A stretch of 41,137 nucleotides of DNA, taken from positions 69,628 through 110,764 of the IMG/VR virus record IMGVR_UViG_3300000062_000003. The stretch is one strand, 5' to 3'. Shown in pieces: positions 2-41,093 of this stretch. A program made the position numbers and the translations under genes. The notes beneath the pieces are model-generated. The model was not told the DNA's origin and did not search any database. It saw only the letters and a program-made list of their open reading frames with translations. Source of the stretch: a virus. Positions within the stretch are counted from its first letter, which is position 1, and the number at the start of each line of letters is the position of its first letter.

Positions 2-3000
2 CTTATAGATGCTATACGAAGATTATTTGGAGGAAAAGTAAATGCGCAGACATACAATAATATTAATACACTAAATAATCAAATAACTGAATACTTATTT
101 AGTGAGAGATTTGGAGAGCAGGTTAATGCATTTAATGGCACCACCCTGACTCTGTTCAATATAAACAACATAAGTACATTTCATCAAGAACTATACACTA
201 AAGTCCAAAATGCAGCAGAAGCTATCCGAGCCCATAGTAAAAATGTAGAAATACAAACTGTCACTGATGAGGCTATGAATAGTAGTATATGGAGTTCTGC
301 TATCAAAGTAGCAGGTATTGCAGAATATGAGGTAAATGCTTTAGCAGCTGAACTACGTACTGCTGTATCCAAAGATACTGCTATATCTCAATCAGCAATG
401 ATGACTTATAGTAATATTAAGAATTATATAATACCTGCATTTAATGAGTTCAGAACATTTGTATCAGATAACAAAAACTCATTTCCGATAGATAATTTAT
501 CAGCTTTGCGTCAGTTAGAAGAATCTATGGATGCTGTGATATTGAATTATTCCAGAGTTGAGGGATATTACACTTCTATAAATACAGAGGGAAGGGTAGA
601 CGAAGCTATTGATAGAATGGCAAAGAAGGAGAACTGGAGTGCTGAAACTGTTGATGCATTAAAACAACAAGCCAAGGCTAAGAGAAAAGACCAAAATTCA
701 ATTTGGTTGGCTATTGGTTCGCTTGCTCATAGGAATAATCCATTCATGTCAATGGTTAATAAGTTGATACATGGGATTAGTGCTAAAGTAGGGTATATGA
801 TGAGCAATCTTAAAACTGTCCTAGACCCTGCTGTACAGAAGGACTTACATAAGTATATGCCCAATCTTATAAAAAGAGTAGATGGTAAAAATTCAGGATA
901 TGTAACTGCACCTGTTAGAATAGCAGAGGCAGAGAAGGCACAGGCAGAGTGGGAAAGAAAAACCAGATTGAGGTATATTCATAAGACCTTGCCTACTTTA
1001 GAAGATATTGATGCAAATGACCCAGATGCCACTCAACAATTATTTAGGCATCTGATGCTTAAAGTGATAGAATCAGATAATCTTTCTAATGTACAAGAAT
1101 CCGAGGATGGAGAAGTAAAAGTAACATTAAGTCAAGCATTGCCAACTGAAGTTAAGAAGGAATTACAAACAATTTTAGATAAGATTAATGAAATTAATAA
1201 GTTAAAGGATACTAAAGAAGCAGTAGCACTTTCTCAAGTGATGAAAACTCCCAGAGAAAAAACAGTAGTTTTTACAACTAATGAGGTGCAAGATGTTACT
1301 ACAAAGGGACTTTTATCAGCGGAGGCCAGTGAGTCTCCACTTAGATTAACGAATAGCCAAGATGCTGAGTATCAGTATGAACTATCTAAGAGACGTTTAA
1401 TTCACAATGAGCAGCAATTTTCTGATGAGTATTACCAACAGGAGATGGAAAAGACTGTTGCTAATAAAGATATCTGGATGTCCATTCTGGTATCTAAACA
1501 GATAAATGGAGAAATAGCCAAGATTAGAGCTAAGTACATGGAAAATGGCAGGGTTAATGATGCAGCCCTCCGTGAAAATGAAGCAGATAGAATGGCAGTA
1601 GATGCTTTGGAAAAGCAATTACGACAGGCTAGGTCAGCCTACTATTCTACTCCAGTAGGGTTAGATGCTACGGAAACACATCTCAAGGCCTATTTAGCAG
1701 AGGGAGATAACGCCACAGAGCTAAAAGCAGATATTAGACAGAAACTTGCTGGCAAATTCACACCTGTTGAAATACAGGAATTTATAACATCACTGGAGGA
1801 GAAAGGTTTCTTCCAAGGTAAAGAGAGAAGACACCAAGTGGTAGCCCTTCCCCTGACCGAACAAGATAGAAATGATATATCACAAGACGAATTAATTACA
1901 TGGGGATTCTTGAAAAGACAAGAAGATTACACCAGAGAGTTTGATTCTATTAGTGAGGAATTTAAAGGAGAGGTACAGCGTTTTCTAGATATGGCGACTA
2001 CAGGTGAACTTACACAGGAGGAAGCATATCAACGAGCATATGCCTTCTTATCAAGTTCAGGTGCCATTGGTATGACTGAGGAATACTACAACTCAATGGG
2101 AGAGCATGAGTCGTACATAAAGAGAGCAGCTGCTGCTATTGCAAAGGTTCCAGATAATCCTGCCGATACTAGTGGTAATTCTAGAGAACAGTATCAAGCA
2201 GCATTAGATGCATATGAAAACAAATGGAAACGGCTAAGATATTTAAATTCTATATACAAAAGTTCTTCTAATATAGGCGAAGTGGACTACTCTGGTTTTG
2301 AATCAATAAAACGTGAAGTTCTTCAACTGAACAGAAGTATGACACAGCTACGCAGGTCAATTCCTAAAGTGGATTCCATAGCACAATCAACTGCTGAAAA
2401 GGGGATGAATGAGGCCTATCATAGAGAGTTACAATCTAAGAATATAGCTGAAGGCTCTGTCCAAGAGAAACATTTTTTAACTCAACATCTAGTAGATGAC
2501 GAAGGTTTCTACAAGTTTAAGGCTCAAATGACATGGTATGTAAAAGGAAGACAAGTATCAGAGAAGTATCAAAAGTATACCATAGCAGCAGTCCAACAAC
2601 TTCCAAGAGAAGCAAATGAAACTAATGAGCAGTATTTAGCACGGCTGGCTCCGCAAGCAGAGATTAATTTCTTACGAGATAATGTAGCATCTTATTATAT
2701 GAGATACAGTCCAGTTGGATTTAATTCCTTAATGGATGGGCTAAGAGCAGGTCAGGTTAACCCAATGTCTTTGATAGACCATGATTCCACATCCCTGCCC
2801 CCAGAGCAATCTCAAGCATTACCATTTGTACAAGTTACTCCTAGATATGACTGGAGAGAATCTGTATATAATGACCGAAATCTAAATCCTAGATATGATA
2901 TAAATGGTACATATAACCAGTACAAAGCATTTACTAGAAATGCAGCAGGAGAGCTGGTAGATTATGTAGATGACCCTACTGAAGTAAATGAAGATGGGAC

Positions 3001-5110: not shown

Positions 5111-5116
5111 TAAAAT

Positions 5117-5623
5117 ATGAACCAAGATAAATTATATCCATGTGTGGAGTGTGGTAAGGAGGTTAAAATTCGTAGTAAAGGGAAATGCTCCTATTGTCGT
5201 GCAAAAGAACTGCAAAACAGTACAACAGTGAGTAAACCAACTGCACCAACAAAGACTGTTAATAGATTAATACAAGAAAGGAAAAACAGGGTACATAACT
5301 TTTTTGTACAGTTATTGGAAGAAATGTTGCCGATATCGGCAGAAAGTGGTACTTTTATAACAGATTTTAGTAAAAAGAATTTATGTCACATTCTTCCAAA
5401 ACGCATCTACCATTCAGTAGAAGAGGATGTAATGAATATAGTTATATTAACTTGGTCAGAGCATGCTAGATTCGATGAGTTACTAGATAACAGAGAAAAG
5501 GAATTACTATTGAAAGAATTTCCTACTGTTTGTGCTATTATCAGAGAGAGAATGCCATATTTTAGAGACCATGTTACAGAGACTACAGGTTCATTGTTTA
5601 ATTTCCTAAAGCAGCTAAAGTAA
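5117..5623 (+). CDS. Zn-ribbon plus HNH-like nuclease protein
   Basis: N-terminal CVEC...CSYC; C-terminal HILPK...H...NIVILTWSEH fits an H-N-H pattern. Confidence 0.55.
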   Translation: MNQDKLYPCVECGKEVKIRSKGKCSYCRAKELQNSTTVSKPTAPTKTVNRLIQERKNRVHNFFVQLLEEMLPISAESGTFITDFSKKNLCHILPKRIYHSVEEDVMNIVILTWSEHARFDELLDNREKELLLKEFPTVCAIIRERMPYFRDHVTETTGSLFNFLKQLK

Positions 5624-8792: not shown

Positions 8793-9248
8793 ATGAGTTG
8801 GTTTAAAGTAAGTGTAGAAAGCGAGAGAATGCAAGAAAATGGAATGTACAAGAAGGTAACTGAAGTCTATTTGTTGGATGCAGTTTCATACACAGAGGCA
8901 GAGGCGCGTACATTGAAGGAGATAACTATTGATATTTCTGGAGAGTTTAAAATAGCAGATATTAAACGAATTAAACTAGCTGAGATATTCCAATACTCAG
9001 AAGCAGAGCCAGATGGGTTCTTTTTAGCTACAGTAAAATATGTGACATTAGATGAGAGAAGTGGGATGGAGAAGGAAAAACCAGTTAAAATGTTGGTCAT
9101 CGCCCCTGACTTCGATACAGCATTAAAAACACTACATACAGGTATGAGAAATACAATGGTTGCTTATAAAGTAGCAAACTTAACTGAGTTTCTTATTGAA
9201 GGCATCTATCCTTTTTCAGATGACCAAATTACTGAGGTAAAGTTCTAA
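8793..9248 (+). CDS. DUF4494-like protein
   Basis: MSWFKVSV...MQENGMYKKVTEVYLLDAVSYTEAEAR...TLDERSGMEK, recognised as the Bacteroidota DUF4494 pattern. Confidence 0.8.
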   Translation: MSWFKVSVESERMQENGMYKKVTEVYLLDAVSYTEAEARTLKEITIDISGEFKIADIKRIKLAEIFQYSEAEPDGFFLATVKYVTLDERSGMEKEKPVKMLVIAPDFDTALKTLHTGMRNTMVAYKVANLTEFLIEGIYPFSDDQITEVKF

Positions 9249-10512: not shown

Positions 10513-13500
10513 ATGAATACTCAAACATATTTTATAGCACCCTACACAGTAGAGGAGGTACAAAATGCGACCATACAAGATTGTTTAGACTATATCACTA
10601 CTAAAACAGTATTAGGAATAGATGTGGAAACAACAAGAAGATATCCCAAAGGTAAGTATGATGAGTCGATATATAAAGGTGGACTTGACCCATATTTATC
10701 AGATGTAGTCATGTTACAGTTAGGGTATTTCGAAAAGATATTTGTGATAGACACCAGATTTGTGACACAAGAAGAGTTGCAACCTATCTTGGATTTCTTA
10801 CAATACAACAACAGTGTAGAGTTGGTTGGGGTAAACTTGAAATTTGAAGCCAAGCATCTTAGGCATAAATATGGATTAAGGCTTAGAAAAGTGTTTGATT
10901 GCATGCTAAGTGAAATGGTACTTTTCAATGGGATGCCTATGGGGTATAGTTTAGCTGCAATGGCAGGGCGATATCTAGGAATTTCTAAAAAAGAGGATAA
11001 TTTACTCTTTGAAGAGATGTATAACAAAGCTACAATAACAGTAGACCAAGAATTACTAGAGGAAAACGAGCATCTTTTAACACCTTTTGAAATAGCAGAT
11101 GCACAGGAAATAGACAAGTCTACTCGTTTGGAGTTCCTTAGTATTGGTGATAAACCCTTTTCTAAGAGGCAAATTTTATATGGGTCTGATGATATTCTTT
11201 ATCCACTGAAAATCAGGGAGTTACAAATGCTCGGCCGTAAAATCTCAGAAAATGATATCTATTGTCCTACTAATTGTATTCGAATAGAAAATGCTTTTTC
11301 TCAAGTACTTGGAGATGTAGAATTATCAGGAATGCTCATAAACCAGAAGTTATGGTTAGAAATAGCAGCAGAAAATGAAGTAGAATATAACAAACGTAAG
11401 GTAGAACTAGATGATTATGTTTGTGAGTTATTCCCACAGTATGCAGGATTACCTGATTTATTCTCAGATAAACCATTATGTCATGTACAATGGAGCTCCT
11501 CCACTCAGGTTGTTAAGTTTTTAAGGAAGCTAGACCTCTGCCCACGAGCTCGGTCAATGCAAACTGGAAAAGAAGAATGGACAGCAGGAGCAAAAGAACT
11601 AGTTAAAACTCTTCCCAATAAGTATAAGAACTTATACATGAAAAACAAATGGGAACCTTTCTCAAAAGATGAAAATGGAAAATACATCTATGATAAAGAT
11701 AAGTTAAGACTGGCAATTCTAAATCTAAACAAGTCCTTTCAGGCTATCACTACATTTGGAGCTGATTGGTTAAAATATATTCATCCAATAACTGGAAAAG
11801 TACATTCAAGTTATCGTCAGATATTAAATACGGGTAGGATTTCAAGTACTAATCCTAATTGCTTTTCCTTAGATACCAAATTATTGACTAAAGATGGTTG
11901 GAAAGGATATGATGAAATTAAAATAGGGGATGCAATTCTATCTTATAACATGAAGACTCGTGAATTGGAGACAGATACTGTGTTGGACTATTATCTTGGA
12001 GAGGGAGAGTTATTGGAGTTTGTAGGGAATAGAAATTTTGATGGTTGTATGACCCCTAACCACCGACAAGTAGTAGTAACAAGTGCAGGTGAAAATGATA
12101 TAAAAGAAGCCCAAGATATCTCTGGTTATGAAAGGATTATAAATGCAGGACATTTACGTGAGGGCAGAGATGAACCTGAGTGGTTTATTGAGTTACTGTG
12201 TGCAACTCAAGCAGATGGGAAGAAAGTAGGTGAGAGTTGGAATTATGAATTTACTAAGAAGAGGCAGGCGGATAGGTTTAGGAGGAGTTTGAATAAAATC
12301 ACCCCTGACTATGTTATAATTTGGGAAGAAACCCAACACGAAATAAATGACACAACACAATATAGTTTCTCTGTAGCATTTTCAAACGATTTCTTCAACA
12401 ATTATCTACAAGATGGACAGTTTACTTGGACATTAATGAAAATGTCTCACAGGTCTCGAAAATACTTCATAGAAGAGTTACATCATTGGGGAGAATCATT
12501 TACATATAGTTCAATTATAAAATCAAATGCTGAAATAGTTCAAGCAGTTGCTACAACTATAGGAGTCAGGGGAAGGTATGAAACATATCCCCACAAAAAA
12601 GATGGTATTATCAGACACCAAATAGCCTTAGAAAGTAAACAACTTACAGGAGCCAATAGGCTAGAGGTTAATAACTTGGGAGTAAATAAAGTTTGGTGTG
12701 TTAAAACCAAGAACACTACAGTTGTTGCCAGTAGAGGAGTGAGTGTATGGGTATCAGGGAATTGTCAGAATATTAGTAATGGAAAATGGAGGAAGGCATT
12801 TATTGTTGAGGAGTGTGAAGATTTACTTAATTTAGATTTTTCAGCACAGGAGCTCTCGCTCCTAGCTGATAGAGCAGAAGAAAAGAATATGCTTGACTTT
12901 TTTATAAATGGTAATCCAATTTTCGGAACTGATTTACATTCATACTCTGCTACACGAATTGCCAAGTTAACTACAGGAGACCCAAATGCCTTTATACCAC
13001 CAAAAGAATTAGCAGATGGGTCAGATAATCCTGAATTTAAACCAGAGCATAATGAGTTACGTAACAAGTCAAAAGCAGTTTCATTTGGGATAGCATATGG
13101 CAAACAGAATTTTGCTGATGATTTCGGGTGTTCTGATGAGGAAGCTAAAGACTTTGTTCAAGGCTATTTAGGAGCATTTCCAGGGTTGCCATCATACTTT
13201 ACACATATACAGGAGGTTTCTTTAAAACAAGGCTATGTACTTATAGATTCTTTTTCTGGTAGGCGGTGGTTCTCGCAAGATTATCAAAAACTACAAGAAT
13301 TACAAAAGGAATGTATGGCACCCTACCAGACACCAGAGTATAAAGCAATGTCTAAAGAGGAGAGAGAGAAATGGCGTATTGAGTACAAAGAAGAAAACCC
13401 TTGGTTTAAGCAACTTTGGCGAAATAATATGATATTAAAAGGTTCCTTAGGACGTAAGGCCTTAAATTACCCTCTGCAAGGCAGTGCTGGAACCCAAACT

Positions 13501-13725
13501 AAGGTGGCAGCATGTATGTTACGACATCTAATAATATCTGAAAATCTACCAATAGAATTAATAAATATGGTACATGATGAAATGCTGGTAAAGTGTACTG
13601 ATACTACACGAAGTGATGAGATGGGAAAGGTGGTACAGAGATGTATGGTTGATGGGGGGAACATGCTTTGTAATAATAAATTGATGAAGAGTTCATATAA
13701 AATTGGTAAACACTGGATTCACTAA
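10513..13725 (+). CDS. polA: Family A DNA polymerase with 3'-5' exonuclease domain, intein-containing
   Basis: ExoI GIDVET; TGRISSTNPN; motif A DFSAQEL; motif B RNKSKAVSFGIAYG; motif C VHDE. Confidence 0.93.
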   Translation: MNTQTYFIAPYTVEEVQNATIQDCLDYITTKTVLGIDVETTRRYPKGKYDESIYKGGLDPYLSDVVMLQLGYFEKIFVIDTRFVTQEELQPILDFLQYNNSVELVGVNLKFEAKHLRHKYGLRLRKVFDCMLSEMVLFNGMPMGYSLAAMAGRYLGISKKEDNLLFEEMYNKATITVDQELLEENEHLLTPFEIADAQEIDKSTRLEFLSIGDKPFSKRQILYGSDDILYPLKIRELQMLGRKISENDIYCPTNCIRIENAFSQVLGDVELSGMLINQKLWLEIAAENEVEYNKRKVELDDYVCELFPQYAGLPDLFSDKPLCHVQWSSSTQVVKFLRKLDLCPRARSMQTGKEEWTAGAKELVKTLPNKYKNLYMKNKWEPFSKDENGKYIYDKDKLRLAILNLNKSFQAITTFGADWLKYIHPITGKVHSSYRQILNTGRISSTNPNCFSLDTKLLTKDGWKGYDEIKIGDAILSYNMKTRELETDTVLDYYLGEGELLEFVGNRNFDGCMTPNHRQVVVTSAGENDIKEAQDISGYERIINAGHLREGRDEPEWFIELLCATQADGKKVGESWNYEFTKKRQADRFRRSLNKITPDYVIIWEETQHEINDTTQYSFSVAFSNDFFNNYLQDGQFTWTLMKMSHRSRKYFIEELHHWGESFTYSSIIKSNAEIVQAVATTIGVRGRYETYPHKKDGIIRHQIALESKQLTGANRLEVNNLGVNKVWCVKTKNTTVVASRGVSVWVSGNCQNISNGKWRKAFIVEECEDLLNLDFSAQELSLLADRAEEKNMLDFFINGNPIFGTDLHSYSATRIAKLTTGDPNAFIPPKELADGSDNPEFKPEHNELRNKSKAVSFGIAYGKQNFADDFGCSDEEAKDFVQGYLGAFPGLPSYFTHIQEVSLKQGYVLIDSFSGRRWFSQDYQKLQELQKECMAPYQTPEYKAMSKEEREKWRIEYKEENPWFKQLWRNNMILKGSLGRKALNYPLQGSAGTQTKVAACMLRHLIISENLPIELINMVHDEMLVKCTDTTRSDEMGKVVQRCMVDGGNMLCNNKLMKSSYKIGKHWIH
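11860..12762 (+). mobile_element. Intein (301 aa) in the DNA polymerase
   Basis: Begins CFSLDTKLLTKDGW, has block B MTPNH, and ends WCVKTKNTTVVASRGVSVWVSGN followed by +1 Cys. It splits NPN/CQNI. LAGLIDADG-like LLCATQADG is present; the second motif looks degenerate. Confidence 0.9.
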
Positions 13726-16042: not shown

Positions 16043-17419
16043 ATGAGAAGACATCATAAAGCAGATGGAGGAATTATTCTACCTGATGCATATGAATCCC
16101 CTATTGTACCAAAGAATACAGGAGTAGTATTGTTAGAACAACAGTGTTCACTTGGCGGAGTTCCTTTCAATCAAGGGTCAGCAGGTATTACTCCAGGTAA
16201 TTACATGGAGTGGTTAGGTATAGAATCAGCAGGCAAGGTTACAGATGGATTTTGGCCATCTTGGACTATTAACAAGTTTGTGGTAAATGCTTTCGATAAA
16301 TTTAATACTATCGAAACTGATGAAATAGCTTGGTTTGACCGAAACGTAACTTTTCATACAGGATTGAATGGTAATGGATGGGTAGACGCACATCTAGGAA
16401 CTGCTGACCTAACCACCTTTAAGTTTTTCGACAGGGTAGATGCACCAGGAACAAATGATTTTCTTCATAATTATGGTGGATATTTTCCTTGGGGAGATGT
16501 AACACATAGGTCTTTATTTTTCCCTACAACTGTACAAGATGGTGTACTTGATGGGAATGTAGGGTTTAGAGTATTTGATATAAGTCCTGGTCAGGTTCAG
16601 CCATATTTTGATACAGTAGACCAAGCTTACCGAAGTACTTTTAACATCCTGAACTGGCAGGGTAAAAGTCCTGACTGGACAGCTATGAAAAATGTTACAG
16701 GTGGCACAGCAGATTATGGTTCCCATAAGACAGGAGTATGGAAAGTACCAGAAACAAATGTTATTCTTCAATTAATCGGACAACTACCTAGACATAATGA
16801 AATTAATGGTACTGGTAACCGTTGGGATGATGTCTTGGATTTCTTCTTGATTAATAGGGAAGCTGACCCTATAAAGCGCATTCCTGCCCCTATAGGAGAT
16901 AATTGGTATCACAAGAATATTTCAGGATTAGGATTTCTACCAAATGGTAAGTTTCAATCTAGATTTGAGGGACAAACTGTTGTGAATCCAGACCATTTTG
17001 GGGTAGCTGCATGTATAACAACTTTTAAAAGTACAGGAAATCATGCAAATGGTCACACAATGATTGCAATGGGAACTTCTAGAAATACTACAGATATTCA
17101 AGGAAACCCAGTAGCACCTGTTACTTGGACAGGAATGTCAGTAAGTTCAATATGGACAATACCTGGACATGGGGGAGGTCTTAGATATTGTAGAATAAAA
17201 ACAGTAGAGGAAAGAGGGTATAAATTAGTGGTAGATACTGGTAGTGATAGAGTATTAGTCACACCCCCTGACGACCCAAGGACTGACATCCCAATAGGAC
17301 TAGAACGTGGAGTAGCTTTACGGTATATGAATAGAGAAAAGAAGAGGGTAGTACAAAAGTGGTCAACCATTCAAGCAGAGGCAACTGCATTAGCTGGTAC
17401 AGTTACAATAGAAGCGTAA
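16043..17419 (+). CDS. Putative virion structural/receptor-binding protein
   Basis: 458 aa rich in G, T, N and W, with a likely beta-rich composition and its own promoter. Function is inferred. Confidence 0.45.
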   Translation: MRRHHKADGGIILPDAYESPIVPKNTGVVLLEQQCSLGGVPFNQGSAGITPGNYMEWLGIESAGKVTDGFWPSWTINKFVVNAFDKFNTIETDEIAWFDRNVTFHTGLNGNGWVDAHLGTADLTTFKFFDRVDAPGTNDFLHNYGGYFPWGDVTHRSLFFPTTVQDGVLDGNVGFRVFDISPGQVQPYFDTVDQAYRSTFNILNWQGKSPDWTAMKNVTGGTADYGSHKTGVWKVPETNVILQLIGQLPRHNEINGTGNRWDDVLDFFLINREADPIKRIPAPIGDNWYHKNISGLGFLPNGKFQSRFEGQTVVNPDHFGVAACITTFKSTGNHANGHTMIAMGTSRNTTDIQGNPVAPVTWTGMSVSSIWTIPGHGGGLRYCRIKTVEERGYKLVVDTGSDRVLVTPPDDPRTDIPIGLERGVALRYMNREKKRVVQKWSTIQAEATALAGTVTIEA

Positions 17420-18700: not shown

Positions 18701-19205
18701 CAAACCAACACCAAGTGAGTTTTTAGAGGTACTTAGAGATAGTTTTGAAGGTTCAACCATCATTTATACAGAAGGAAGTTGTGGAGAGCTACATAAGATT
18801 TTAAAGTGTGTATATCCAGAGGCTCAAGCATATTATGATGGAGACCACACCCTGACTAAGATAGGGGACAGATGGTACGATATTTTAGGAGAGTATACAA
18901 TAGCACCTAAATATATGCCAGTTAATACAAAGGAACTGATTCAAAGTAAAGCAGACATTTATAACTTAGAAATAGATTGTGATAAATTACTAATTTGTAG
19001 AAGAGAAGTACTCAGACTAATATCAGCTAGTATAAATGAATTAGCAGAGAAGGTCAATCAGAGTGATAAACTAGTTCTAAAAGAGTTACTAAGTGATGTC
19101 GCACTATCACAACCTTTAAATAATGCATTTATCGAACTATATGGAGTGGATGTAAATGCAGCAACATTTATTAGATACTCTAAAAGACGACTAGCAAATG
19201 ATTAG
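18690..19205 (+). CDS. Hypothetical phage protein
   Basis: YTEGSC...DH...WYDILG motif seen in a common small phage family. Confidence 0.65.
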   Translation: MENNKPTPSEFLEVLRDSFEGSTIIYTEGSCGELHKILKCVYPEAQAYYDGDHTLTKIGDRWYDILGEYTIAPKYMPVNTKELIQSKADIYNLEIDCDKLLICRREVLRLISASINELAEKVNQSDKLVLKELLSDVALSQPLNNAFIELYGVDVNAATFIRYSKRRLAND

Positions 19206-19977
19206 TATAGAAGAGTGTAAAAAAATACGAGCAGACTTATTAAATAAGTTTAAAGACCTTCAATTTGAAGAAGAGTCACATACTTATACACTACATGGGA
19301 AGGTACTGAAATCAGTATCTTCTCTTATTAAATATTTTGAGGTTCCTTTTGATGATGAGGTACAAGCAGCCTCTTATGCCAAAAAATATGGATTTACTAC
19401 TGAGCAAGTTTTGTCTTCTTGGAGAGGACATGCTAAAATGGCTACAGATAGGGGACATAAGGTACATACATTTGGGGAAAATTGGATAAACTACCAATTC
19501 TTTGAACAAGATAAGGAATTACCAATTCCCAAATGTTTACAAGAACTTGGTATAGTCCAATTTTGGCAGGATAATATTTTAAAATACGATTATCTTTATC
19601 CATTAATTATGGAACTTCAGATGTTCAGTCCAAAATATTATTATTCTGGAACAGCTGACATTTTGATACTAGATAGGCGTAATGGAAGCCTCCTCTGCCT
19701 AGACTACAAGACAAATGCGGACATATTCAAGAAAAGTTATAGTAATTTGATAGTTGATGGTTTTACAGATTATCCAAATACTGCATACTCACATTATGTA
19801 CTTCAACTATCTTTTTATAGTATCATGTTAATGGAGATGGGATATACTGTTAGTAACAGGACATTAATATGGCTAAATAAAGATGAACAAAACAAGAAAC
19901 TTTACAGACTTTACAAACTTCCATTTGTAGGAGAGTGGCTGTATCCCTGGCTAGAGGCTGGTGTATTTTTGAAATAA
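19198..19977 (+). CDS. PD-(D/E)XK (RecB/Cas4-like) exonuclease
   Basis: HTYT...SVSSLI...RGHKVH...SGTADIL...LDYKT...QLSFY. Confidence 0.8.
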   Translation: MISIEECKKIRADLLNKFKDLQFEEESHTYTLHGKVLKSVSSLIKYFEVPFDDEVQAASYAKKYGFTTEQVLSSWRGHAKMATDRGHKVHTFGENWINYQFFEQDKELPIPKCLQELGIVQFWQDNILKYDYLYPLIMELQMFSPKYYYSGTADILILDRRNGSLLCLDYKTNADIFKKSYSNLIVDGFTDYPNTAYSHYVLQLSFYSIMLMEMGYTVSNRTLIWLNKDEQNKKLYRLYKLPFVGEWLYPWLEAGVFLK

Positions 19978-20053: not shown

Positions 20054-20350
20054 ATGAATATCATCCTACAAAGAATGTTATGTTGTATAAAATCCCAAAT
20101 AAAAGAGTTATTTATTCTTTTGGATGGGAAGCAAGACCTATTAATTTCAGGAGTCAATATCAAGACTATAAATAATGAAAGTTTATTAGGTTCAGGCAAT
20201 ATTGATATCTCAGGAGGCTCTACCACAACAGTCCTAGACACCCTGACCTCTTCTTCCGCCACCGATGCTCTTTCTGCTAACCAAGGTAGGGTTTTAAATG
20301 TAATCAAAGCAGATAAAACAGACCTTGAGTGGAAAACTGAAGAGTGGTAA
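20054..20350 (+). CDS. Small tail-fibre-associated protein
   Basis: KQDLLISGVNIKTINNESLLGSGNIDI and ALSANQGRVL are recurrent phage tail-fibre repeat motifs. Confidence 0.7.
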   Translation: MNIILQRMLCCIKSQIKELFILLDGKQDLLISGVNIKTINNESLLGSGNIDISGGSTTTVLDTLTSSSATDALSANQGRVLNVIKADKTDLEWKTEEW

Positions 20351-28702: not shown

Positions 28703-30064
28703 ATGGAAACGAAACAAGAGGACTACTCTTATAATGTTGAGGAGCAGCAGTATGACTATCTAGCCAAAGAGTTTAAGTTGAAGAAGTCTCCTGTATATCG
28801 CACAAGTGTACCAGGTGTAAATGGTAGATTTTATGTTACTTTTGATGAAGAAAACAGACCTATCCTATTAACATCAGGTACCACATGTATCGCTGATGGA
28901 TTTGCTGACCCTTATAAAGCTAAGATGCTAGCTGATTGGAGACTCTCAATGATTCTTAAAGGGAGCAACCCTGAGCTTCATGTAATACGAAGAGCGCATT
29001 ATGGGACGCTGATGCATATCTTATATGGTCATTTACTTATGGGAAAGACAATTCCTATGACAGAGTCCCTTGGTCGTGATGCATTGGAAGATTACATCCG
29101 CACCCTTGACCACGGAATAGATGAGACCAACCTTCAGTATATCTTTGCTAACTATAAGTTAGAGTTAAAGAAAGACATCCTTTCTTTCCTACAATGGGTA
29201 AAAGATTACAAGGTAAAGCCATTAGCAATAGAATTAATGGGATGTTATGCTAAGTACAAAGTAGGGTCTGCAATAGACCTAGTGTGTACCTTGGAAGATG
29301 AAGTAGATGGTTATTGGGGGGAAGTTTATAAAGTGAACTATGGTGACAGAAAAAAAGGTGACCCTAAAAAATCTAAGAAGAAGGTTAGAGTAGTAGCTAT
29401 TGTTGACTATAAGTCAGGAAAAAAAGGGTTTTATGATTCTTATATTTTACAACTGTACCTGTATCGTAAGATTCTGGAAGACCAGTATGGGGTCAAGGTT
29501 GATGCTACCTATAATTTTGCACCAAATGATTGGAGAAAAACTCCTACTTATAAATTTGTACAGCAGGATGACCGAAAGCTAGGTAATCAGTACTTTGACT
29601 CAGTAATGGAGCAAGGCATGAAGAAGTTTGAGGATAAGCCAAAGACATATTCAATTTTTACAGGTAATGCAGCTGTAGATTCTGAACATAGTTCTGTAGA
29701 GTACCAAGAGGTAAATCTCCTTGAAGAATTGTATAAGAGGTATTGTCCTGATAAAGTTCATGAACTTACAGGGGTCACGGAGATTGTCTCACAAGTTTCA
29801 AACAGTACTCCCGACCCCGAACATTTAGAAGTTATACAACAACTTGCAACAAAAGGAGAAGGTGCTTCTATTCTATTTCTAAGTAAACAATCAATGGAGG
29901 TTTTATATTTCATATATGAACAAACTTTCAGAAATAAAGAAATAGTAGAACAAGAACTTACAAAAGCAGAGTTAATAGAGGCAATAAACCAACGACTATT
30001 TGATGGGAAATATAATATGGAAGCACAGGTTTTTACGGAGAACGAGGAAGCTCAAATGTCCTGA
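28703..30064 (+). CDS. PD-(D/E)XK exonuclease-like protein
   Basis: YGTLMH...E...GSAIDLV...IVDYKSG...QLYLY. Confidence 0.7.
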   Translation: METKQEDYSYNVEEQQYDYLAKEFKLKKSPVYRTSVPGVNGRFYVTFDEENRPILLTSGTTCIADGFADPYKAKMLADWRLSMILKGSNPELHVIRRAHYGTLMHILYGHLLMGKTIPMTESLGRDALEDYIRTLDHGIDETNLQYIFANYKLELKKDILSFLQWVKDYKVKPLAIELMGCYAKYKVGSAIDLVCTLEDEVDGYWGEVYKVNYGDRKKGDPKKSKKKVRVVAIVDYKSGKKGFYDSYILQLYLYRKILEDQYGVKVDATYNFAPNDWRKTPTYKFVQQDDRKLGNQYFDSVMEQGMKKFEDKPKTYSIFTGNAAVDSEHSSVEYQEVNLLEELYKRYCPDKVHELTGVTEIVSQVSNSTPDPEHLEVIQQLATKGEGASILFLSKQSMEVLYFIYEQTFRNKEIVEQELTKAELIEAINQRLFDGKYNMEAQVFTENEEAQMS

Positions 30065-30992
30065 TTGTGGTAGGCTGACACTGGTTCCGTTTTACAATAT
30101 AGAGACTAATCAACCTTTTGAAGGAAATATTTTTGGAAAATGTGATAGGCAAAATAATTGTAATTATTATAGAAAACCTATATGGCAAGACTATAAGAGA
30201 TTAGGTATATTAGAGTTCGAAGATGAAGTACCCTCTGATTACAAACTTAAAGTACACCCAAAAGTAGTTCAAAAAATAAATGAGGAGGAAGATGATGCTT
30301 TTAACTCTATAGAAATAAAAGAAGTTCTTTCCACCACAATAGTAGACTACTCACAGATATCATTATTTAGATGGTTATGCAGTATTTGGGAGGAGAACAA
30401 GGTTAGGGCAGTGTTTCAGAGACATATGGTTGGATATGACCAAAGATGGGGGGGAAGTCCAGTATTTTGGTATATGGATTATGATGGAAGTACACGGTCA
30501 GGGAAGGTGATGGGGTATGATGACAAGACAGGTAAGAGAGTTAAAACTCCTTATAGCCAAGTTTCTTGGTTACATATTCGTGACCGACAATTACGAGAAA
30601 TAAGGGAGCCTACTTTTTCTATAAAGTTATGTTTGTTCGGAGAACATTTGATAGACCACTATCATAAATTTAGGGTAGTAGAATCCGAGAAAACAGCTAT
30701 AATCTGTCAATTAGAGGAGAAAGACCCTTTTACATTATGGTTGGCTGTGGGAGGTTCCGAAAACATATTAAATAGTATATTTAGAGTATTGGAAGGTAGA
30801 CCAGTAGTTTTCCACCCTGACAAGGGAAAAGCATTTCATAAATGGAATCAAAAGATACAACTACTAGATGAAGATATACGACATAATTTCAAAATATCTA
30901 GTTGTTTGGAAGGTACTCCTTTACCAGAAGAAAGTGATTTAGCTGACTATATACTATCAAAGAAACAACAAGTTTTCTTTCACAAAGTTTAA
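30003..30992 (+). CDS. Putative primase (Zn finger plus Toprim; DUF6371-like)
   Basis: CPDCG...GKCDRQNNCNY; CLFGEHL; VVESEKTAII; WLAVGG; FHPD; DLADY. Confidence 0.7.
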   Translation: MGNIIWKHRFLRRTRKLKCPDCGRLTLVPFYNIETNQPFEGNIFGKCDRQNNCNYYRKPIWQDYKRLGILEFEDEVPSDYKLKVHPKVVQKINEEEDDAFNSIEIKEVLSTTIVDYSQISLFRWLCSIWEENKVRAVFQRHMVGYDQRWGGSPVFWYMDYDGSTRSGKVMGYDDKTGKRVKTPYSQVSWLHIRDRQLREIREPTFSIKLCLFGEHLIDHYHKFRVVESEKTAIICQLEEKDPFTLWLAVGGSENILNSIFRVLEGRPVVFHPDKGKAFHKWNQKIQLLDEDIRHNFKISSCLEGTPLPEESDLADYILSKKQQVFFHKV

Positions 30993-34906: not shown

Positions 34907-34932
34907 AATATTGATATTCAGTACTTTAGTAG

Positions 34933-35032: not shown

Positions 35033-35290
35033 ATGACCAGAGAACAATACTTAGAAATCAGGCGAGCAGGAGACCTACCTAGTCTTTTTCGATACTTTTA
35101 TTCAGTTTATGTAGAGGCAACTGATAAACCAGTGCCTTTTCAGATGTTTTATATAACTTTTAAACAGTGGTTGCAATCAGACATGTTCAACACCCCTGAC
35201 TACTGGAGTGCATTAGATACCAAATATGAATTAAATTTTGTATACAGTACTACTGATAAACAACCTCAAAATATAATCTATATTTATTAA
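35033..35290 (+). CDS. Hypothetical protein
   Basis: 85-aa ORF directly upstream of the helicase. Confidence 0.6.
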   Translation: MTREQYLEIRRAGDLPSLFRYFYSVYVEATDKPVPFQMFYITFKQWLQSDMFNTPDYWSALDTKYELNFVYSTTDKQPQNIIYIY

Positions 35291-35292
35291 AT

Positions 35293-36357
35293 ATGAAGTT
35301 CATTAAATGTTCTACAGAAGTTATTGAGCAGGCTGCAAATGAATTAAGACAGTATGAAACAGGGGAAATTAAACCTATCAAAACTAGATATGACCATTTG
35401 AATGAAAATACTTATGGGGGTATCTTACCTGGTACTATTACTGTTATTGCTGGAACGTCAGGTACAGGAAAAAGTTTTGTAGCACAAGAACTAGAGGAAG
35501 ACTTTCTTAATCCAGACCTTAATCCAGGAGCAGAAGAGCATATTCTACTTCGTTGTAATTGGGAAATGATATTTAGGTCATTACTTGTACGTTCTATTCG
35601 TAAACAAATGCCTCTAACTCTGAAGGATATATATTATAAGGAGAAGTCAGAGGCGGAGCGACAAGTAATTGAACAAGTAATCGCCAGAGAACAATCAAAG
35701 AATATATATTATTTCTCCCAACCTGTGACCCCAGAAGAGTTCGAAAAAGATGTAAGAGCTTTTCTAGAAATGCATAAATCAGCTAAACGTATATGGGTAA
35801 CTATAGACCATATGGGACTAGTAGAAGGAAGGGATAAATTTATAGCAATGAATACTCTGATAGCTGTTTTAAATAAGATGAAATTGACTCAGGAATTTTC
35901 TAATACTTCTTTTATTCCATTAATGCAGCTTAATAGGGAGATTGAGGGGAGAACTGATGTTAGGTTTTTGAGTCCGAGACGTGGCGATTTCTATGGTGCG
36001 GATTCTATCTTTCAAACAGCCGACCTTGTAATGGTATTACATCGACCTGAAAGACTGTCACATGAAAAATATATGCAATTTCATCCTAGCAAGTATTCAC
36101 ATCTAAAAGAGTTCATGGATAAGCCAGGAGCACAAAGAGCATCTTTCTTAACAGATAACTTAATATTCTTCCACTATCTTAAATTACGAGAGGAGGATGA
36201 AACTATGAATGATGTACATATTGAAAGACTGTCTCATAAAGCAAAGACAGAGATAGAGTTTCAACAGTCTGTAAAAACTGACCAAGAAAGAAAAGTAGAG
36301 GACACTATAGAAAAGCATTTTGCGATGCAGGGAGAAGAAGCTCCATTACCATTTTAA
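35293..36357 (+). CDS. dnaB: DnaB-like (SF4) replicative helicase
   Basis: Walker A GTSGTGKS; Walker B-like VTIDH; QLNRE; ADLVMVLHRP. Confidence 0.85.
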   Translation: MKFIKCSTEVIEQAANELRQYETGEIKPIKTRYDHLNENTYGGILPGTITVIAGTSGTGKSFVAQELEEDFLNPDLNPGAEEHILLRCNWEMIFRSLLVRSIRKQMPLTLKDIYYKEKSEAERQVIEQVIAREQSKNIYYFSQPVTPEEFEKDVRAFLEMHKSAKRIWVTIDHMGLVEGRDKFIAMNTLIAVLNKMKLTQEFSNTSFIPLMQLNREIEGRTDVRFLSPRRGDFYGADSIFQTADLVMVLHRPERLSHEKYMQFHPSKYSHLKEFMDKPGAQRASFLTDNLIFFHYLKLREEDETMNDVHIERLSHKAKTEIEFQQSVKTDQERKVEDTIEKHFAMQGEEAPLPF

Positions 36358-36387
36358 TGGTACTTAATGATATTTAATTTCGAATAG

Positions 36388-37872
36388 ATGGCAACTAAAC
36401 TAGATACTGAAACATATATAAAACTAGCTACAGAAGTACATAAAGGAAGGTATCTGTACCCTAACTTAAAATACTTAAGTATTCACGAGAAGGTAGAAAT
36501 ACTTTGTCAGGTACATGGTGCTTTTTGGCAGTCAGCTAATTCTCACAAAAGAGGTAATGGCTGTCCAAAATGTAGGGTTGATGCACATAAGGCAAGGTAT
36601 GATAACCAGTTTGAGACATTTAAAAGTAAAGCTAGAAAAGTTCATGGAGATATTTATGATTACAGCTTAAGTGAGTATAAAAAGGCTAAGATAAATATAG
36701 CTATAATTTGTAAAAAACATAATAAGTTATTCTATCAAACACCAGACTCTCACATAAACAGACAAGCAGGGTGCCCTATATGTGCAATAGAAAAATCTGC
36801 GAATAGTAAGAAATCAAATAAAGCTTCGTTTATCAGAAAAGCTAAGGAAGTTCATGGAGAGACTTTTGATTATAAAGATGTAACATATGTGTCAAGTTTA
36901 GAGAAGGTATTAGTAACATGCAATAATAATCATACATTTTTAGTAACTCCTGGTAATCATTTACAAGGGAGAAATTGTCCTTATTGTAGTAGGGGACAAA
37001 CTACTTCTATACAGGAGAAAGAATTAGAGGCTTTTGTTAACACTGTTATCTCTAACTATTATACTAATACCAGAAAAGTACTAAGTGGAAAAGAACTAGA
37101 CATTTACATACCTTCTAAGAAGATAGCTATGGAGTTTGATGGTGCATATTGGCACTCTGAAAAGTTTGTAGATTATAAGTATCACTTGTCTAAGACAGAA
37201 GAGTGCGAAAAGCAAGGAATCCAACTCATCCACATCTTTGAAGATGAGTGGGAAACTAAACAGCAAATAGTAAAATCTAGATTAAGACAAATACTAGGCT
37301 GTCAAGTATCGAAAGTATATGCACGCCAAACCGAGGTCAGGGAGGTGCCACCAACAGAAGCCCGACTCTTTCTACAAAGGACTCACATACAAGGAGCTGT
37401 GGGAGCAACTGTGAGACTCGGACTCTACTACGAGGACAAACTTGTAGCCTTGATGACCTTTGGAAAGCCTCGCATTTGCCTAGGTAGAAAGACCTTCGAG
37501 GAAGGTGAATGGGAGCTACTGCGCTTCTGCACAGAATTGGACACCACTGTTGTAGGCGGAGCTTCCAAGCTCCTTAAGTACTTTGAGAAGCATTACTCGC
37601 CTAACAAGGTCTTTTCTTATGCAGACAGGCGATGGTCACAGGGAGGCTTGTACACCCAGCTGGGTTTCACCCTTGCTTCGAAGACAAGACCTAACTATTT
37701 TTATGTTAAAAATGGTAAAAGGTATAATAGATTTAAGTTTAGAAAATCTGAGTTAAGTGGGCGAGGAGAGACAGAGCATGAGAAGGTGCTGAATACTGGG
37801 TATCTTAGAATCTATGACTGTGGCTCTTTAAAGTTTATTAAATTATTTCCCCAAACCCTCAACCTCGGCTAG
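36388..37872 (+). CDS. Putative homing endonuclease (repeated Zn-binding modules plus Vsr/PD-(D/E)XK-like domain)
   Basis: Three VHG..YDY...C..H...CPxC repeats; ELDIYIP...EFDGAYWH; C-terminal domain with ELLRFC...SYADRRWSQG...IYDCG. Confidence 0.75.
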   Translation: MATKLDTETYIKLATEVHKGRYLYPNLKYLSIHEKVEILCQVHGAFWQSANSHKRGNGCPKCRVDAHKARYDNQFETFKSKARKVHGDIYDYSLSEYKKAKINIAIICKKHNKLFYQTPDSHINRQAGCPICAIEKSANSKKSNKASFIRKAKEVHGETFDYKDVTYVSSLEKVLVTCNNNHTFLVTPGNHLQGRNCPYCSRGQTTSIQEKELEAFVNTVISNYYTNTRKVLSGKELDIYIPSKKIAMEFDGAYWHSEKFVDYKYHLSKTEECEKQGIQLIHIFEDEWETKQQIVKSRLRQILGCQVSKVYARQTEVREVPPTEARLFLQRTHIQGAVGATVRLGLYYEDKLVALMTFGKPRICLGRKTFEEGEWELLRFCTELDTTVVGGASKLLKYFEKHYSPNKVFSYADRRWSQGGLYTQLGFTLASKTRPNYFYVKNGKRYNRFKFRKSELSGRGETEHEKVLNTGYLRIYDCGSLKFIKLFPQTLNLG

Positions 37873-37904
37873 CCAGTAAAAAGTAATTATTAAATAAAGA
37901 CATT

Positions 37905-38237
37905 ATGAGTACAAAACATGAAGAAAAACCAAGTAACTGGTTTCCTGTAAAACAAAGATTTGTAGTTGAATTAGAGTTTGATGACATCAATGAGGAGACT
38001 GCCAGACAACTGATACTGAGTTGTATAACCAAGGATACAACAATATTACCCAATTTATATGTGAGACGATTTTATAACAAAGTTACTTCAGTTGAATCAG
38101 TTATAGAGAAGTACAAAAATGATACTATATCACAAGTAAAGGATGAACTAACTAATATGATAACTGATATCAATAATAACCTGGATGCATTCGCACCTTT
38201 ACCTGTAGACATAGGATGGATAGATTTTGAACATTAA
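37905..38237 (+). CDS. Hypothetical protein
   Basis: 110-aa ORF. Confidence 0.6.
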   Translation: MSTKHEEKPSNWFPVKQRFVVELEFDDINEETARQLILSCITKDTTILPNLYVRRFYNKVTSVESVIEKYKNDTISQVKDELTNMITDINNNLDAFAPLPVDIGWIDFEH

Positions 38238-38288
38238 CTAACTTTAACAAGTATATTTAGGTAGGTAATTTTATTTTACCTACCTTTG
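38234..38288 (+). repeat. Promoter/palindrome repeat, copy B2 (spacer inverted)
   Basis: TTAACTAACTTTAACAAGTATATTT-AGGTAGGTAA-ttttatt-TTACCTACCT-TTG; the spacer is the reverse complement of the B1 spacer. Confidence 0.9.
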
Positions 38289-38336
38289 TTATATGTAATA
38301 AGAGCATCTTATAAAGTAAAACAAAACAACAAACAG

Positions 38337-38573
38337 ATGGAAGTAGTAGCATTTTTATCATTAATATTATGTGTTGTAGTCGGATGTTATACAGTCAAGT
38401 ATCTATATACTCCTAACACTGTTATTTTACCTACTAGACATTATGCAGGTGATTTTATAACCCTACCTGATTGCAATACTCAATATTATGTAGTAGCAGT
38501 TAGAAGGATTCTTCATAGCTATCAAAATGGAGAAACATGGTATGAATATGAATTAACTAAGACAACTAAATAA
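38337..38573 (+). CDS. Small membrane-anchored hypothetical protein
   Basis: ATG at 38337 lies downstream of the promoter; N-terminal hydrophobic helix. Confidence 0.55.
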   Translation: MEVVAFLSLILCVVVGCYTVKYLYTPNTVILPTRHYAGDFITLPDCNTQYYVVAVRRILHSYQNGETWYEYELTKTTK

Positions 38574-38575
38574 AC

Positions 38576-38728
38576 ATGGAACAAGTCATTAAAGAAATTG
38601 TTAAGAATGCAGAGATAATCTCATATAACCAAGCTATAGATGATGTACTATACCTTATGGATAAACATGAAGAAGAGATTTATGTGGGTGTAATTAACGA
38701 TATTTTAGAACTTAAGAAAGATATTTAA
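38576..38728 (+). CDS. Small hypothetical protein (50 aa)
   Basis: MEQVIKEIVK...LKKDI exactly fills the gap between its neighbours. Confidence 0.55.
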   Translation: MEQVIKEIVKNAEIISYNQAIDDVLYLMDKHEEEIYVGVINDILELKKDI

Positions 38729-38729
38729 T

Positions 38730-39398
38730 ATGGCACAGTTTTATCCTAAAATTCATACTCTTTATAAAAGAGATGAAAAAACTAAGAAGATTATTGTAGG
38801 AGACTATTCTCGACCAGAGTTTGAGATTCTGAAAGATGTAAAATGGGATGCTACATATAAAACTGATGGTACAAATATCAGCATCTGTTTTGATGGGAAG
38901 ACTGTACAGTTTAGAGGAAAAACAGACAGGGCGGACATACCTAAACATTTATTGAAAAAGTTACAAGAAATTTTTACTCTTGAATTATTAAATAATGTAT
39001 TTACAGAAGAACAAGGTACAGATGGTAATATAAACCCTAGGTATATTGAAATATTTGGAGAGGGATATGGGATGAAAATACAAAAAGGTGGAAATTATAT
39101 ACCTGATGGTGTAGATTTCATTTTATTTGATGTTCGTATAGGTAAATGGTGGTTAGATTATGAGACATGTGAAAAGATAGCTCAATCCCTAGGAACTAAG
39201 ATAGTGCCTTCTTATGGGAAACTAACAATAAAACAAGCAGAAGAGATGGTAATCAAAGGTTTTAAAAGTCCGATAGCTCATAATAAAGACTATGAGGCTG
39301 AGGGTTTAGTACTAAGAGCACCTCTTGGATTGTTAGACAGGTCTGGTAATAGAATTATTACTAAAATTAAACATGTAGATTATAAGCATTTATCATGA
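38730..39398 (+). CDS. RNA ligase (Rnl2-like nucleotidyltransferase domain)
   Basis: YPKI; motif I KTDGTN; FGEGYG; LFDV; EGLVLR; KIK. Confidence 0.8.
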   Translation: MAQFYPKIHTLYKRDEKTKKIIVGDYSRPEFEILKDVKWDATYKTDGTNISICFDGKTVQFRGKTDRADIPKHLLKKLQEIFTLELLNNVFTEEQGTDGNINPRYIEIFGEGYGMKIQKGGNYIPDGVDFILFDVRIGKWWLDYETCEKIAQSLGTKIVPSYGKLTIKQAEEMVIKGFKSPIAHNKDYEAEGLVLRAPLGLLDRSGNRIITKIKHVDYKHLS

Positions 39399-39892
39399 AT
39401 GATTTAAAATTAGGATATAAAGAAGTAGCTATTATTCTAGGAATTGAATATTATGATGCTAAAAGAATAGTGTGGAGAGCTTTAAATCCTGATACAGATA
39501 TTTTGGAGTTCGTTCCTAGTAAGATAGGAGTAAATACGAAAGCACCCCTGACCTCTTTTAAATCAAAGACAACCAGTTGGATAGATGAGTTACATGGTAA
39601 GAACTATTTGCAGCATATGGTGTATTGCATACATGCTAATGGGCTAAGTACCACTACTTGTACTAACATTCTTTGCGATATTGATTGTATTATAAAAGCA
39701 GACTTAGTAGGAGATTATAAAGTATTCAAAGACATTCTATCGCCAAAGCATTTACAAGAGATTATAGGCACTTTGGTTAAAAGACGAGGAGAATACCTAT
39801 CCTCTGGGGAGAAAGTTCCTTCTCGTCTTTTAAAATTTGTGAGTAAAGTAGATATTAAATCCACTTGTTATAAAATACCATATGAAGACTAA
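39395..39892 (+). CDS. Hypothetical protein, possibly DNA-binding
   Basis: N-terminal YKEVAIILGI resembles an HTH. Confidence 0.55.
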   Translation: MNDLKLGYKEVAIILGIEYYDAKRIVWRALNPDTDILEFVPSKIGVNTKAPLTSFKSKTTSWIDELHGKNYLQHMVYCIHANGLSTTTCTNILCDIDCIIKADLVGDYKVFKDILSPKHLQEIIGTLVKRRGEYLSSGEKVPSRLLKFVSKVDIKSTCYKIPYED

Positions 39893-39916
39893 GAAAAAAA
39901 CTACAAAAATTAAGAG

Positions 39917-40762
39917 ATGAATAAAAAAGAAATTACACTTATAAGTTGCTCAGGTAAAATAGCCTCAGGTAAGAATATGGTAACAGCTATCATACAATAC
40001 TATGCAAGATTTTTTAGAACAGGAGAAAACAAGGAGGCGTTTAGAGCTACCATAGAACAACTGATTCTAACTAAACAATCACAATTATTATCCACTGAGT
40101 TTAAAGAAATTAGTTGGGCAGATGGTCTGAAAGATATGGTATGTATTCTTCTTAGTTGTACAAGAAGTCAATTGGAAGACCGTGAGTTTAAGGAGAAAGA
40201 GTTAGGGGAAGAATGGTGGTCATGGGTGGTTGTTCAAAACAATCTAACTATGCGCATACCATATCTTAGAGCTACAGCAGATGAGGTATGCGATATGTTT
40301 GGAACATTAGACATCGACTTAGAAAAACTAACTCCTAGGTTAATTTTACAAAGATTAGGTACAGGAGGACTTCGAGACCTGATACATCAGGATGCTCATA
40401 GCAATATGCTACTGAATAAGCTCAAACAGCACCCTTATCAGAGATTTATCATTACAGATACTAGATTTGAAAATGAGGACTTAGCAGTTATAGATAAAGG
40501 AGGATTAAGGATTCGTATAGAGAGAGAACTTATGTACAGGTTTCCTGAAGTATGGAAGGAGTACAAGACAAGTGAAGCAACTTGTCCTTATGTTGATTGG
40601 ATAGAGAAACATCATCCTGACCTCCATGAACGAATCAACCATCAATCAGAAGTTGAATTAGACTATACTAAAATGGATGAAACTATTTATAATAATGGAA
40701 CTATATTAGAAACTATAACTCAAGTAGAGAACTTATTATTTAAGTATAAAATTATTCAATAA
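39917..40762 (+). CDS. Deoxynucleoside monophosphate kinase
   Basis: SGKIASGK P-loop; WADGLK; TPRLILQRLGT; IITDTRFENE; HQSE. Confidence 0.85.
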   Translation: MNKKEITLISCSGKIASGKNMVTAIIQYYARFFRTGENKEAFRATIEQLILTKQSQLLSTEFKEISWADGLKDMVCILLSCTRSQLEDREFKEKELGEEWWSWVVVQNNLTMRIPYLRATADEVCDMFGTLDIDLEKLTPRLILQRLGTGGLRDLIHQDAHSNMLLNKLKQHPYQRFIITDTRFENEDLAVIDKGGLRIRIERELMYRFPEVWKEYKTSEATCPYVDWIEKHHPDLHERINHQSEVELDYTKMDETIYNNGTILETITQVENLLFKYKIIQ

Positions 40763-40763
40763 T

Positions 40764-41027
40764 ATGGCAAGAAAAACAGTAGTTAAAGCCAAACCAGTTT
40801 CTAAATTGTTTAAGAAACTGCAACAGTTTTCCAAGATAGATATTTACTATTTAAAAACTAAGTACCCTAAAGATTCTGTAGAAATAGCAGATATAGAAAT
40901 ATTAGACAGAGAAGTTAAGATTAGTCTTGAAGAAATCCATCTGGCTGACCTATATCTAAAGTCGGTGTATTATAATTTTAAAACAAACATTTATAAGGAT
41001 GATATCTATAAATTGGTTTTCTATTAA
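40764..41027 (+). CDS. Hypothetical protein
   Basis: 87-aa ORF ending the operon. Confidence 0.55.
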   Translation: MARKTVVKAKPVSKLFKKLQQFSKIDIYYLKTKYPKDSVEIADIEILDREVKISLEEIHLADLYLKSVYYNFKTNIYKDDIYKLVFY

Positions 41028-41062
41028 ATTTTGGCACCTATATATCACTTTACACCCAACCA

Positions 41063-41093
41063 AAGTCAGGGGAGGGATGAGCCTCCCTGACTT
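41063..41093. other. GC-rich hairpin built from two inverted CCCTGAC motifs
   Basis: AAGTCAGGG...CCCTGACTT with an inner AGG/CCT pair; intergenic; no clear U-tract. Confidence 0.6.

Follow-up and report, generated by a model that had tools for sequence, protein, structure and literature searches.

The DNA considered here, called the window, is a stretch of 41,137 nucleotides that makes up positions 69,628-110,764, the last 41 kb, of the 110,764-bp virus record IMGVR_UViG_3300000062_000003, and its central feature is the asymmetric heptamer CCCTGAC, which recurs throughout the genes of the phage. To judge from those genes, the phage is an uncultured crAss-like virus near the epsilon phage csAssE-Sib and the Cellulophaga phages phi4:1/phi17:2 (Lightbulbvirus). 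The window carries PolA, a family A DNA polymerase with an intein-like insert (10513..13725, + strand), two exonucleases, a DHH enzyme, GroEL, a DnaB-like replicative helicase (35293..36357, +) and a Zn-ribbon plus DUF6371 protein that is predicted to be a primase (30000..30992, +) and is a candidate reader of the word, so that the record encodes a primase-like protein, a DnaB-like helicase and a PolA of its own. In its major orientation CCCTGAC lies on the + strand at 24 positions (144, 1851, 3105, 4152, 5753, 6371, 8397, 9104, 12303, 14718, 15309, 15862, 17266, 18850, 20241, 21630, 23220, 23454, 27095, 30815, 32618, 35194, 39546 and 41085), and in the minor orientation, on the - strand and read as GTCAGGG on the +, at eight (12565, 14564, 15640, 20525, 30497, 34800, 37336 and 41065), where the flanks are biased as in the major copies. 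These positions match exactly those given in an earlier inspection of the letters alone (the sequence-only reading), which had also placed copies inside the intein and a homing endonuclease: two (12303 and 12565) do lie within the insert of PolA and one (37336) within a homing-endonuclease-like gene (36388..37872, +). The predicted primase gene itself holds two more, 30497 on the - strand and 30815 on the +. The C-terminus of the product of gene 36388-37872 shows a Mom-like domain just at the Pfam cut-off.

The abundance of the word is far beyond expectation. An order-2 Markov model predicts 1.76 copies in the window, where 32 are found, and about 4.5 in the whole record, where there are 82 (57+25), a density of one per 1.35 kb; the chance rate of a 7-mer is about once per 25 kb. 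Within 113 curated coding sequences 57 copies lie in sense and 13 in antisense, and the remaining 12 are intergenic. Per-gene synonymous shuffles (300) yield 2.7 sense (maximum 8) and 2.2 antisense copies (maximum 7), and shuffles keyed on the next amino acid yield 6.3 (maximum 15) and 1.9. Shuffles that also forbid GATC, CCGG, GAATTC and CTGCAG, the words that the phage avoids (the record has 0 copies of GATC and GAATTC and one each of CCGG and CTGCAG), yield 4.6 (maximum 10) and 2.1 (maximum 6) in 60 samples. The enrichment is thus 10-20 times over chance and survives every codon-preserving null, and a codon-usage or dicodon artefact is ruled out by four nulls. The codon-preserving shuffle that the sequence-only reading had named as the way to overturn its case leaves the excess standing (57 sense copies vs 2.7-6.3), and its claim that selection acts on the DNA is upheld by the synonymous nulls together with the extended, partly synonymous flanks described below. 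Its description of the word as frame-independent needs narrowing: sense copies are divided 28/29 over the two possible frames, the third being a stop, and antisense copies occur in all three frames. Amino-acid-compatible codon triples are filled in 57 of 148 sense and 13 of 135 antisense cases (p=9e-9), and four control phages fill 0-6 of 121-220. These fill rates reject pure coding opportunity as the source of the strand bias, with one null leaving only p=0.012. A GGTC site resembling that of T7, placed on the antisense strand, was also considered and rejected: the GACC excess (247 vs 124) is confined to one frame and exists because GATC is absent, and the GATC-free relative G003 has the same GACC excess without the heptamer. 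Copies are positioned uniformly along genes (Kolmogorov-Smirnov p=0.57), and helical phasing was not found among the periods tried. The feature is genuine and under strong selection.

The selected element is also longer than the seven bases originally proposed. It is a polar DNA site of about 16 nt, composed of a 6-nt C-rich, G-poor tract, the core CC(C)TGAC and a trailing Y-N-C. Flank information amounts to 0.22, 0.41, 0.18, 0.57, 0.08 and 0.27 bits from -6 to -1, is 0.00-0.03 bits from -10 to -7, which sets a sharp edge at -6, and downstream reaches 0.64 bits at +1 and 0.77 at +3. The 5' tract holds 192 C and 43 G among 492 bases, vs 63 C and 59 G among 328 further out; GGTCAGGG is the commonest 8-mer form, with 47 copies, and the total information is about 14+3 bits. 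Because the flank bias is common to all four site classes (both sense frames, antisense and intergenic) and is partly synonymous (C at +1, 31 vs 12.5; at +3, 35 vs 20.8), this signal of about 16 nt acts on the DNA. Genome-wide, the flank score is similar in the two orientations, 2.8 for the 66 major and 3.0 for the 16 minor copies (p=0.78). The core is near all-or-none: when true sites are masked, CCTGAC occurs 11 times vs 8.8 expected and CCCTGA 5 times vs 7.8, shorter sub-words are no longer enriched, and one-mismatch variants mostly are not enriched either. The tolerant core position is the third C, that is, the C of CTG. Variants at this position retain the flank signature, with scores of 2.5-3.6 vs 3.4 for true sites, and among other variants 17 of 18 score at most 0.1, the exception being a single copy. 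The form CC[AGT]TGAC-Y-N-C has 8 sense copies vs 0.6 expected, as one of 29 patterns tried post hoc, and six such position-3 variants lie in the window (3028, 29104 and 34198 on the + strand; 29489, 29771 and 40216 on the -).

The orientation of the word follows the architecture of the genome. The bias toward the + strand noted at the outset is a true polarity, but its sign flips with the genome arm and does not belong to the + strand as such; plotted against GC skew, as had been suggested, orientation indeed flips at the switch of gene direction and skew. This gene-direction switch lies at genome 17.7-18.4 kb, with copies 4+/13- on the left arm and 53+/12- on the right (Fisher p=1.4e-5), and the cumulative GC skew turns at 17,006 (minimum) and 110,661. 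The 53 major copies of the right arm are evenly spaced (mean 1,781 bp, coefficient of variation (CV) 0.74, P=0.013), with a largest gap of 5,085 bp (P=0.013), a spacing compatible with Okazaki fragments. At the point of gene divergence lies a perfect 7.1x16-bp tandem array in AT-rich DNA (L001:17963-18114), bracketed by a bottom-strand copy 19 bp to the left and a top-strand copy 5 bp to the right; the two stand in crossing orientation, for which the chance is about 5e-5 per array. From these features we infer an origin of replication close to the gene-direction switch, at genome ~18 kb. An inverted pair of copies (41065 and 41085), at the end of the + gene block where genes converge, forms a 12-bp hairpin (41063..41093; -10.2 kcal/mol, z -2.6), which is not a classical terminator, given that it has no T-run and 0 terminator-like sites were found.

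We classify the word as a polar replication or recombination signal. The polarity flip, the even spacing and the sharp-edged 5' tract are best joined by a reading in which it marks the place on the lagging-strand template where the phage's own primase begins, a reading to which we assign a probability of roughly 0.45. A priming site had been among the first proposals, and the flip, the spacing and the primer-length tract speak for it; its suggested link to the 5'-CTG of E. coli DnaG loses force, since it is at the C of CTG that the core tolerates change. In such a mechanism the DnaB-like helicase would move 5'->3' on the strand carrying CCCTGAC, the Zn-ribbon/TOPRIM-like primase would recognise TGAC-Y-N-C, and synthesis would begin opposite T, with CCC and the 6-nt tract being copied. 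The product would be a primer of ~10 nt (T+CCC+6), G-rich and C-poor, of a pppAGGG(G/U)-rich type, and so close to the ~11-nt primer given for bacterial DnaG (PMC10359460). Sites would be written into genes at Okazaki spacing, on average every 1.8 kb on the major strand, as they must be since chance supplies a 7-mer so rarely; the two copies that bracket the array would prime both leading strands across the origin, and copies on the minor strand would be used at forks that restart or are set up by recombination. The origin, the reader, the primer start and the primer length are all what we infer from the genome. The predicted primase combines a C4 Zn ribbon (PF21957) with DUF6371 (PF19898) and a TOPRIM-like E...PD...DxxD arrangement with invariant E227, D273, D312 and D315, and the Pfam pair Zn_ribbon_16 and DUF6371 occurs in 97 of 97 aligned family members. 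A 25-column profile match to the T7 gp4 primase core is weak (probability 14%, E=0.002), the homologue in csAssE-Sib is annotated 'DNA primase/helicase', a sequence search of the PDB gave no match, and the structure model has a pLDDT of 49. Precedents exist for parts of this scheme. According to PMC2978363, DnaG specificity lies in residues of the Zn-binding domain and two changes can switch it; flank composition governs both binding and primer length of T7 primase (PMC6136900); and an 8-base primase site, 5'-TTTGGTTA, is given for the NrS-1 PrimPol in PMC8718748, where it is proposed for initiation at a specific site. In a fuller version, which we consider slightly less probable, the specificity of a DnaG/T7-type phage primase would have tightened from three bases to a site of 7-10, and the phage would have rewritten its genes, intein included, to set that site at Okazaki spacing on both replichores.

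Several observations weigh against priming. Each arm has one gene direction, so that replication polarity is inseparable from transcription polarity; the arms are very unequal, 18 and 92 kb; three copies at genome 251-1038 follow transcription; and of the two copies at the array the left has a weak flank (rank 73 of 82). The 28 position-3 variants are non-polar (15 major, 13 minor), and under the restriction-aware null the sense:antisense excess has only p=0.012. The identity of the primase comes from Pfam domains, source annotations and the weak T7 gp4 profile match. In G003, G005 and csAssE-Sib, whose primases belong to the same family (33-36% identity), no comparable ungapped or gapped word was found, the best two-frame score there being at most 6.3 vs 22 in this phage, which would require the primase to have become more specific in this lineage. 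The core is no trinucleotide, and T7 primase sites (5-mers) are enriched only 1.1-1.7 times in sense and 0.9-1.5 times in antisense, so that a triplet primase of the ordinary kind does not produce such a signature. The known primases of DnaG type recognise triplets (PMC2978363), and the NrS-1 enzyme (PMC8718748) is an unrelated AEP-type (archaeo-eukaryotic primase) enzyme that also uses a shorter, stronger site.

The phage carries other DNA signals of a kind usually found in hosts. Six perfect 16-bp parS-type palindromes, TGTTCCACGTGGAACA, lie outside the window between small early genes (L001:1727, 3235, 3929, 5513, 6605 and 7022); five control phages have none, and a ParB_N domain was not found in the record. 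The TGTTCCACGTGGAACA word is printed in papers on parS, related parS words appear in PMC7022226, and host parS sites on a phage are described for phi29 (PMC2731898). At L001:714-741, just downstream of a gene, sits a dif-like 28-mer whose XerD-type arm is perfect and whose spacer reads TGAATA; it was found in none of the five control phages, and a near-identical 23-mer dif-like pattern matches one Rubrivivax genome. Short repeats of the TATGTTGTG type form two arrays of opposite orientation (L001:1350-1520 and 8820-8960), both adjoining a G/C run. Between them lies a 7.4-kb segment in which all six parS sites fall and which opens with several promoter-like words of Bacteroidota type; this segment may be a long terminal repeat or a first-entering region. 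Since the parS sites show that host-type DNA signals are borrowed, explanations in which a host protein reads the word are kept alive.

Among these a Chi-like site deserves the closest attention, although we consider it unlikely. Here a host AddAB/RecBCD-type enzyme, or one of the two PD-(D/E)XK nucleases of the phage, would slow or stop resection at the site and hand the DNA to the phage RecA, which is encoded in the record outside the window (E=3e-45); the phage candidates for such a reader are the nuclease encoded directly upstream of the primase (28703..30064, +) and a second exonuclease (phrog_298; 19198..19977, +). CCCTGAC is an enriched asymmetric word and sits on the presumed leading-strand sequence, the usual orientation of Chi. 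Its density of one per 1.35 kb and near all-or-none specificity resemble Chi in P1 and LLS, and a RecA, two nucleases and borrowed parS and dif-like signals are all at hand. P1 has 50 Chi sites in 94.8 kb, and P1, LLS and MD8 are described as Chi-rich (PMC12315714); Chi-rich phages are without a recombination module of their own, whereas this phage has its own RecA. When the same measures were applied to only two control phages, P1 and MD8, differences appeared in flanks, spacing and strand behaviour: flank information at Chi is at most 0.13 (P1) and 0.20 (MD8) bits per position, against up to 0.77 here; Chi sites are clustered (CV 1.24 in P1 and 1.39 in MD8), against the even spacing here; and Chi in MD8 is 32+/0-, all on the top strand with 17 inside an annotated leftward gene block, against a strand that flips here. 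Chi sites in P1 stand at 31+/19-. Further, known Chi words are not enriched in the record, and a Prevotella chromosome (1.77 Mb) has 14+/12- copies of the word vs 10/12 of a control word. A polar operator or roadblock, for which the mycobacteriophage stoperators are the model of genome-wide operators, we likewise think improbable and place after the Chi-like site. A phage or host protein binding double-stranded DNA would occupy the ~16-bp site all over the genome and, during a plasmid-like state, keep that genome silent or organised. Its appeal lies in a polarity that follows transcription exactly, including the three copies at genome 251-1038, and in the preponderance of sense over antisense copies (57 vs 13); the 16-bp span suits a protein footprint, the six parS sites and the dif-like site suggest a maintained circular form, and several open reading frames (ORFs) have no family. 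Against it, copies are uniform along genes, with no concentration at promoters, most one-mismatch variants lack enrichment, and total information is only ~14+3 bits. Stoperators have a long conserved consensus and a cognate repressor; what is found here is a 7-nt core with ~3 bits, and a repressor family was not found among the ORFs scanned.

Two further proposals of the sequence-only reading fit poorly. An FtsK-orienting polar sequence (KOPS), with the sequence GGGNAGGG and its strand convention, would orient the host FtsK towards the dif-like site of the phage, an arrangement we regard as very unlikely. The dif-like 28-mer at genome 714-741 does lie near one polarity switch, and GGTCAGGG is, as noted, the commonest 8-mer form, but at the fourth base of GGGNAGGG, which KOPS leaves free, the word of this phage is fixed (CCCTHAC 9 vs 6.7 expected), GGGNAGGG itself has only 4+8 copies in the record, and the copies at 251 and 272, just left of the dif-like site, share their orientation with those to its right. 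On both arms, moreover, the direction of the G-rich strand is away from the dif-like site; along KOPS, FtsK travels towards dif (PMC3025954). The least credible of the alternatives is a set of programmed nick or base-modification sites in virion DNA. Strict asymmetric words, such as this one, are typical of nicking and modifying enzymes, T5-type nicks among them, and the full avoidance of GATC (0 copies) implies that the phage DNA is under enzyme-driven sequence selection. Known virion nicks, by contrast, lie on one strand, and the copies here lie on both and flip orientation twice, which counts against nicking in particular; nor was a methyltransferase or nickase family found in the ORFs scanned.

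The record, classed as linear, has an estimated completeness of 73%, and the 111,699-bp contig of a relative suggests that it is near full length. It has terminase, portal, ring and muzzle genes of crAss type. A D[FYLHV]D[GI]D RNA polymerase motif was absent, by this simple pattern only, from 11 proteins >700 aa, and the large virion proteins at L004:2008-19737 (genome 57-75 kb) are without a simple DxDGD-like motif, unlike typical crAss-like phages. Promoter-like TTTG...TAnnTTTG words, whose consensus we take to be of Bacteroidota type, are present in the record and point to a probable Bacteroidota host. One flank is shared between window 20226-20262 (copy 20241) and L002:17593-17629 (genome ~37,600, a tail-fibre gene copy); the two are identical, pointing to a putative recent internal duplication between tail genes. 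Beyond this record, none of the sequences compared came near this density. Relatives' proteins with 45-76% identity exist, and the viral and metagenome contig scans reached at most 42%. Distant relatives were without enrichment among the loci listed (24 of 80) and among those of at least 4 kb (72 of 77), 161 loci of at least 3 kb held 133 copies vs 134.7 expected, five whole records of distant relatives had 1-12 copies, and five named phages had 1-8. Among 177 viral loci from three extended-motif scans none came near the 8-14 copies per 16 kb seen here, with 286 extra copies vs 211 expected. In muzzle homologues the compatible-peptide score is 2.04 for the closest (61%), 1.88 for this phage and 0.91-1.19 for four others, and 101 distant homologues average 1.25+-0.34 with a maximum of 2.55. 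Likewise, neither enrichment nor polarity of the word was seen in the one Prevotella chromosome and two Bacteroidales fragments covered. The literature searched, which lacked most subscription papers, yielded no relevant description of the word, and neither enrichment of phage primase sites nor a crAss-like motif of such kind. As a separate observation, in T7 (L373) the words CCTTGAG, CTTTGAG and CTTTAAG are enriched 6-9 times in coding strands under synonymous shuffle.

The implications of a long-site phage primase would be considerable. Primase start sites and Okazaki length in vivo are hard to see because known primases read ubiquitous triplets; a primase with one long site, placed every 1.5-2 kb, would make Okazaki control directly testable, and the recognition site, the primer length (~10 nt) and the origin could be read straight from the genome. 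The uncharacterised DUF6371 family would gain a function and a specificity, and the enzyme would prime site-specifically and should for the most part leave host DNA alone. Alternatively, if the reader is a host enzyme, the word becomes a candidate Chi-like or chromosome-organising signal in Bacteroidota, for which we know of no such signal.

In comparison with known systems, csAssE-Sib and phi4:1/phi17:2 are the closest named genomes (terminase identity 34-35%) and have portal, capsid, ring and muzzle genes in common with this phage, but unlike it they show no enrichment of the word, with 7 copies vs 5.6 expected in csAssE-Sib and 1 vs 4.1 in phi4:1. Like Chi in P1, LLS and MD8, CCCTGAC is a short asymmetric word written into genes about once per 1.3-1.9 kb; unlike it, the word is C-rich on the leading-type strand, uses rare codons and flips with the genome arm. 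Like the KOPS and SRS octamers, it is a G-rich asymmetric word found on one strand, its polarity depends on the arm, and the replicon that carries it has a dif-like site; its direction relative to that site is the opposite, and the degenerate position differs. Finally, the word resembles the primase sites of T7 gp4 (5'-GTC), DnaG (CTG/CTA) and NrS-1 in being an asymmetric site of single-strand type whose core is fixed and whose 5' tract is biased; it lies on the presumed lagging template, and the phage has a Zn-ribbon/TOPRIM-like protein in which a short motif resembles T7 gp4. The word would differ from the primase triplets in a core of 7 nt plus Y-N-C and in an enrichment of 10-20 times, as against at most 1.7 times at T7 sites.

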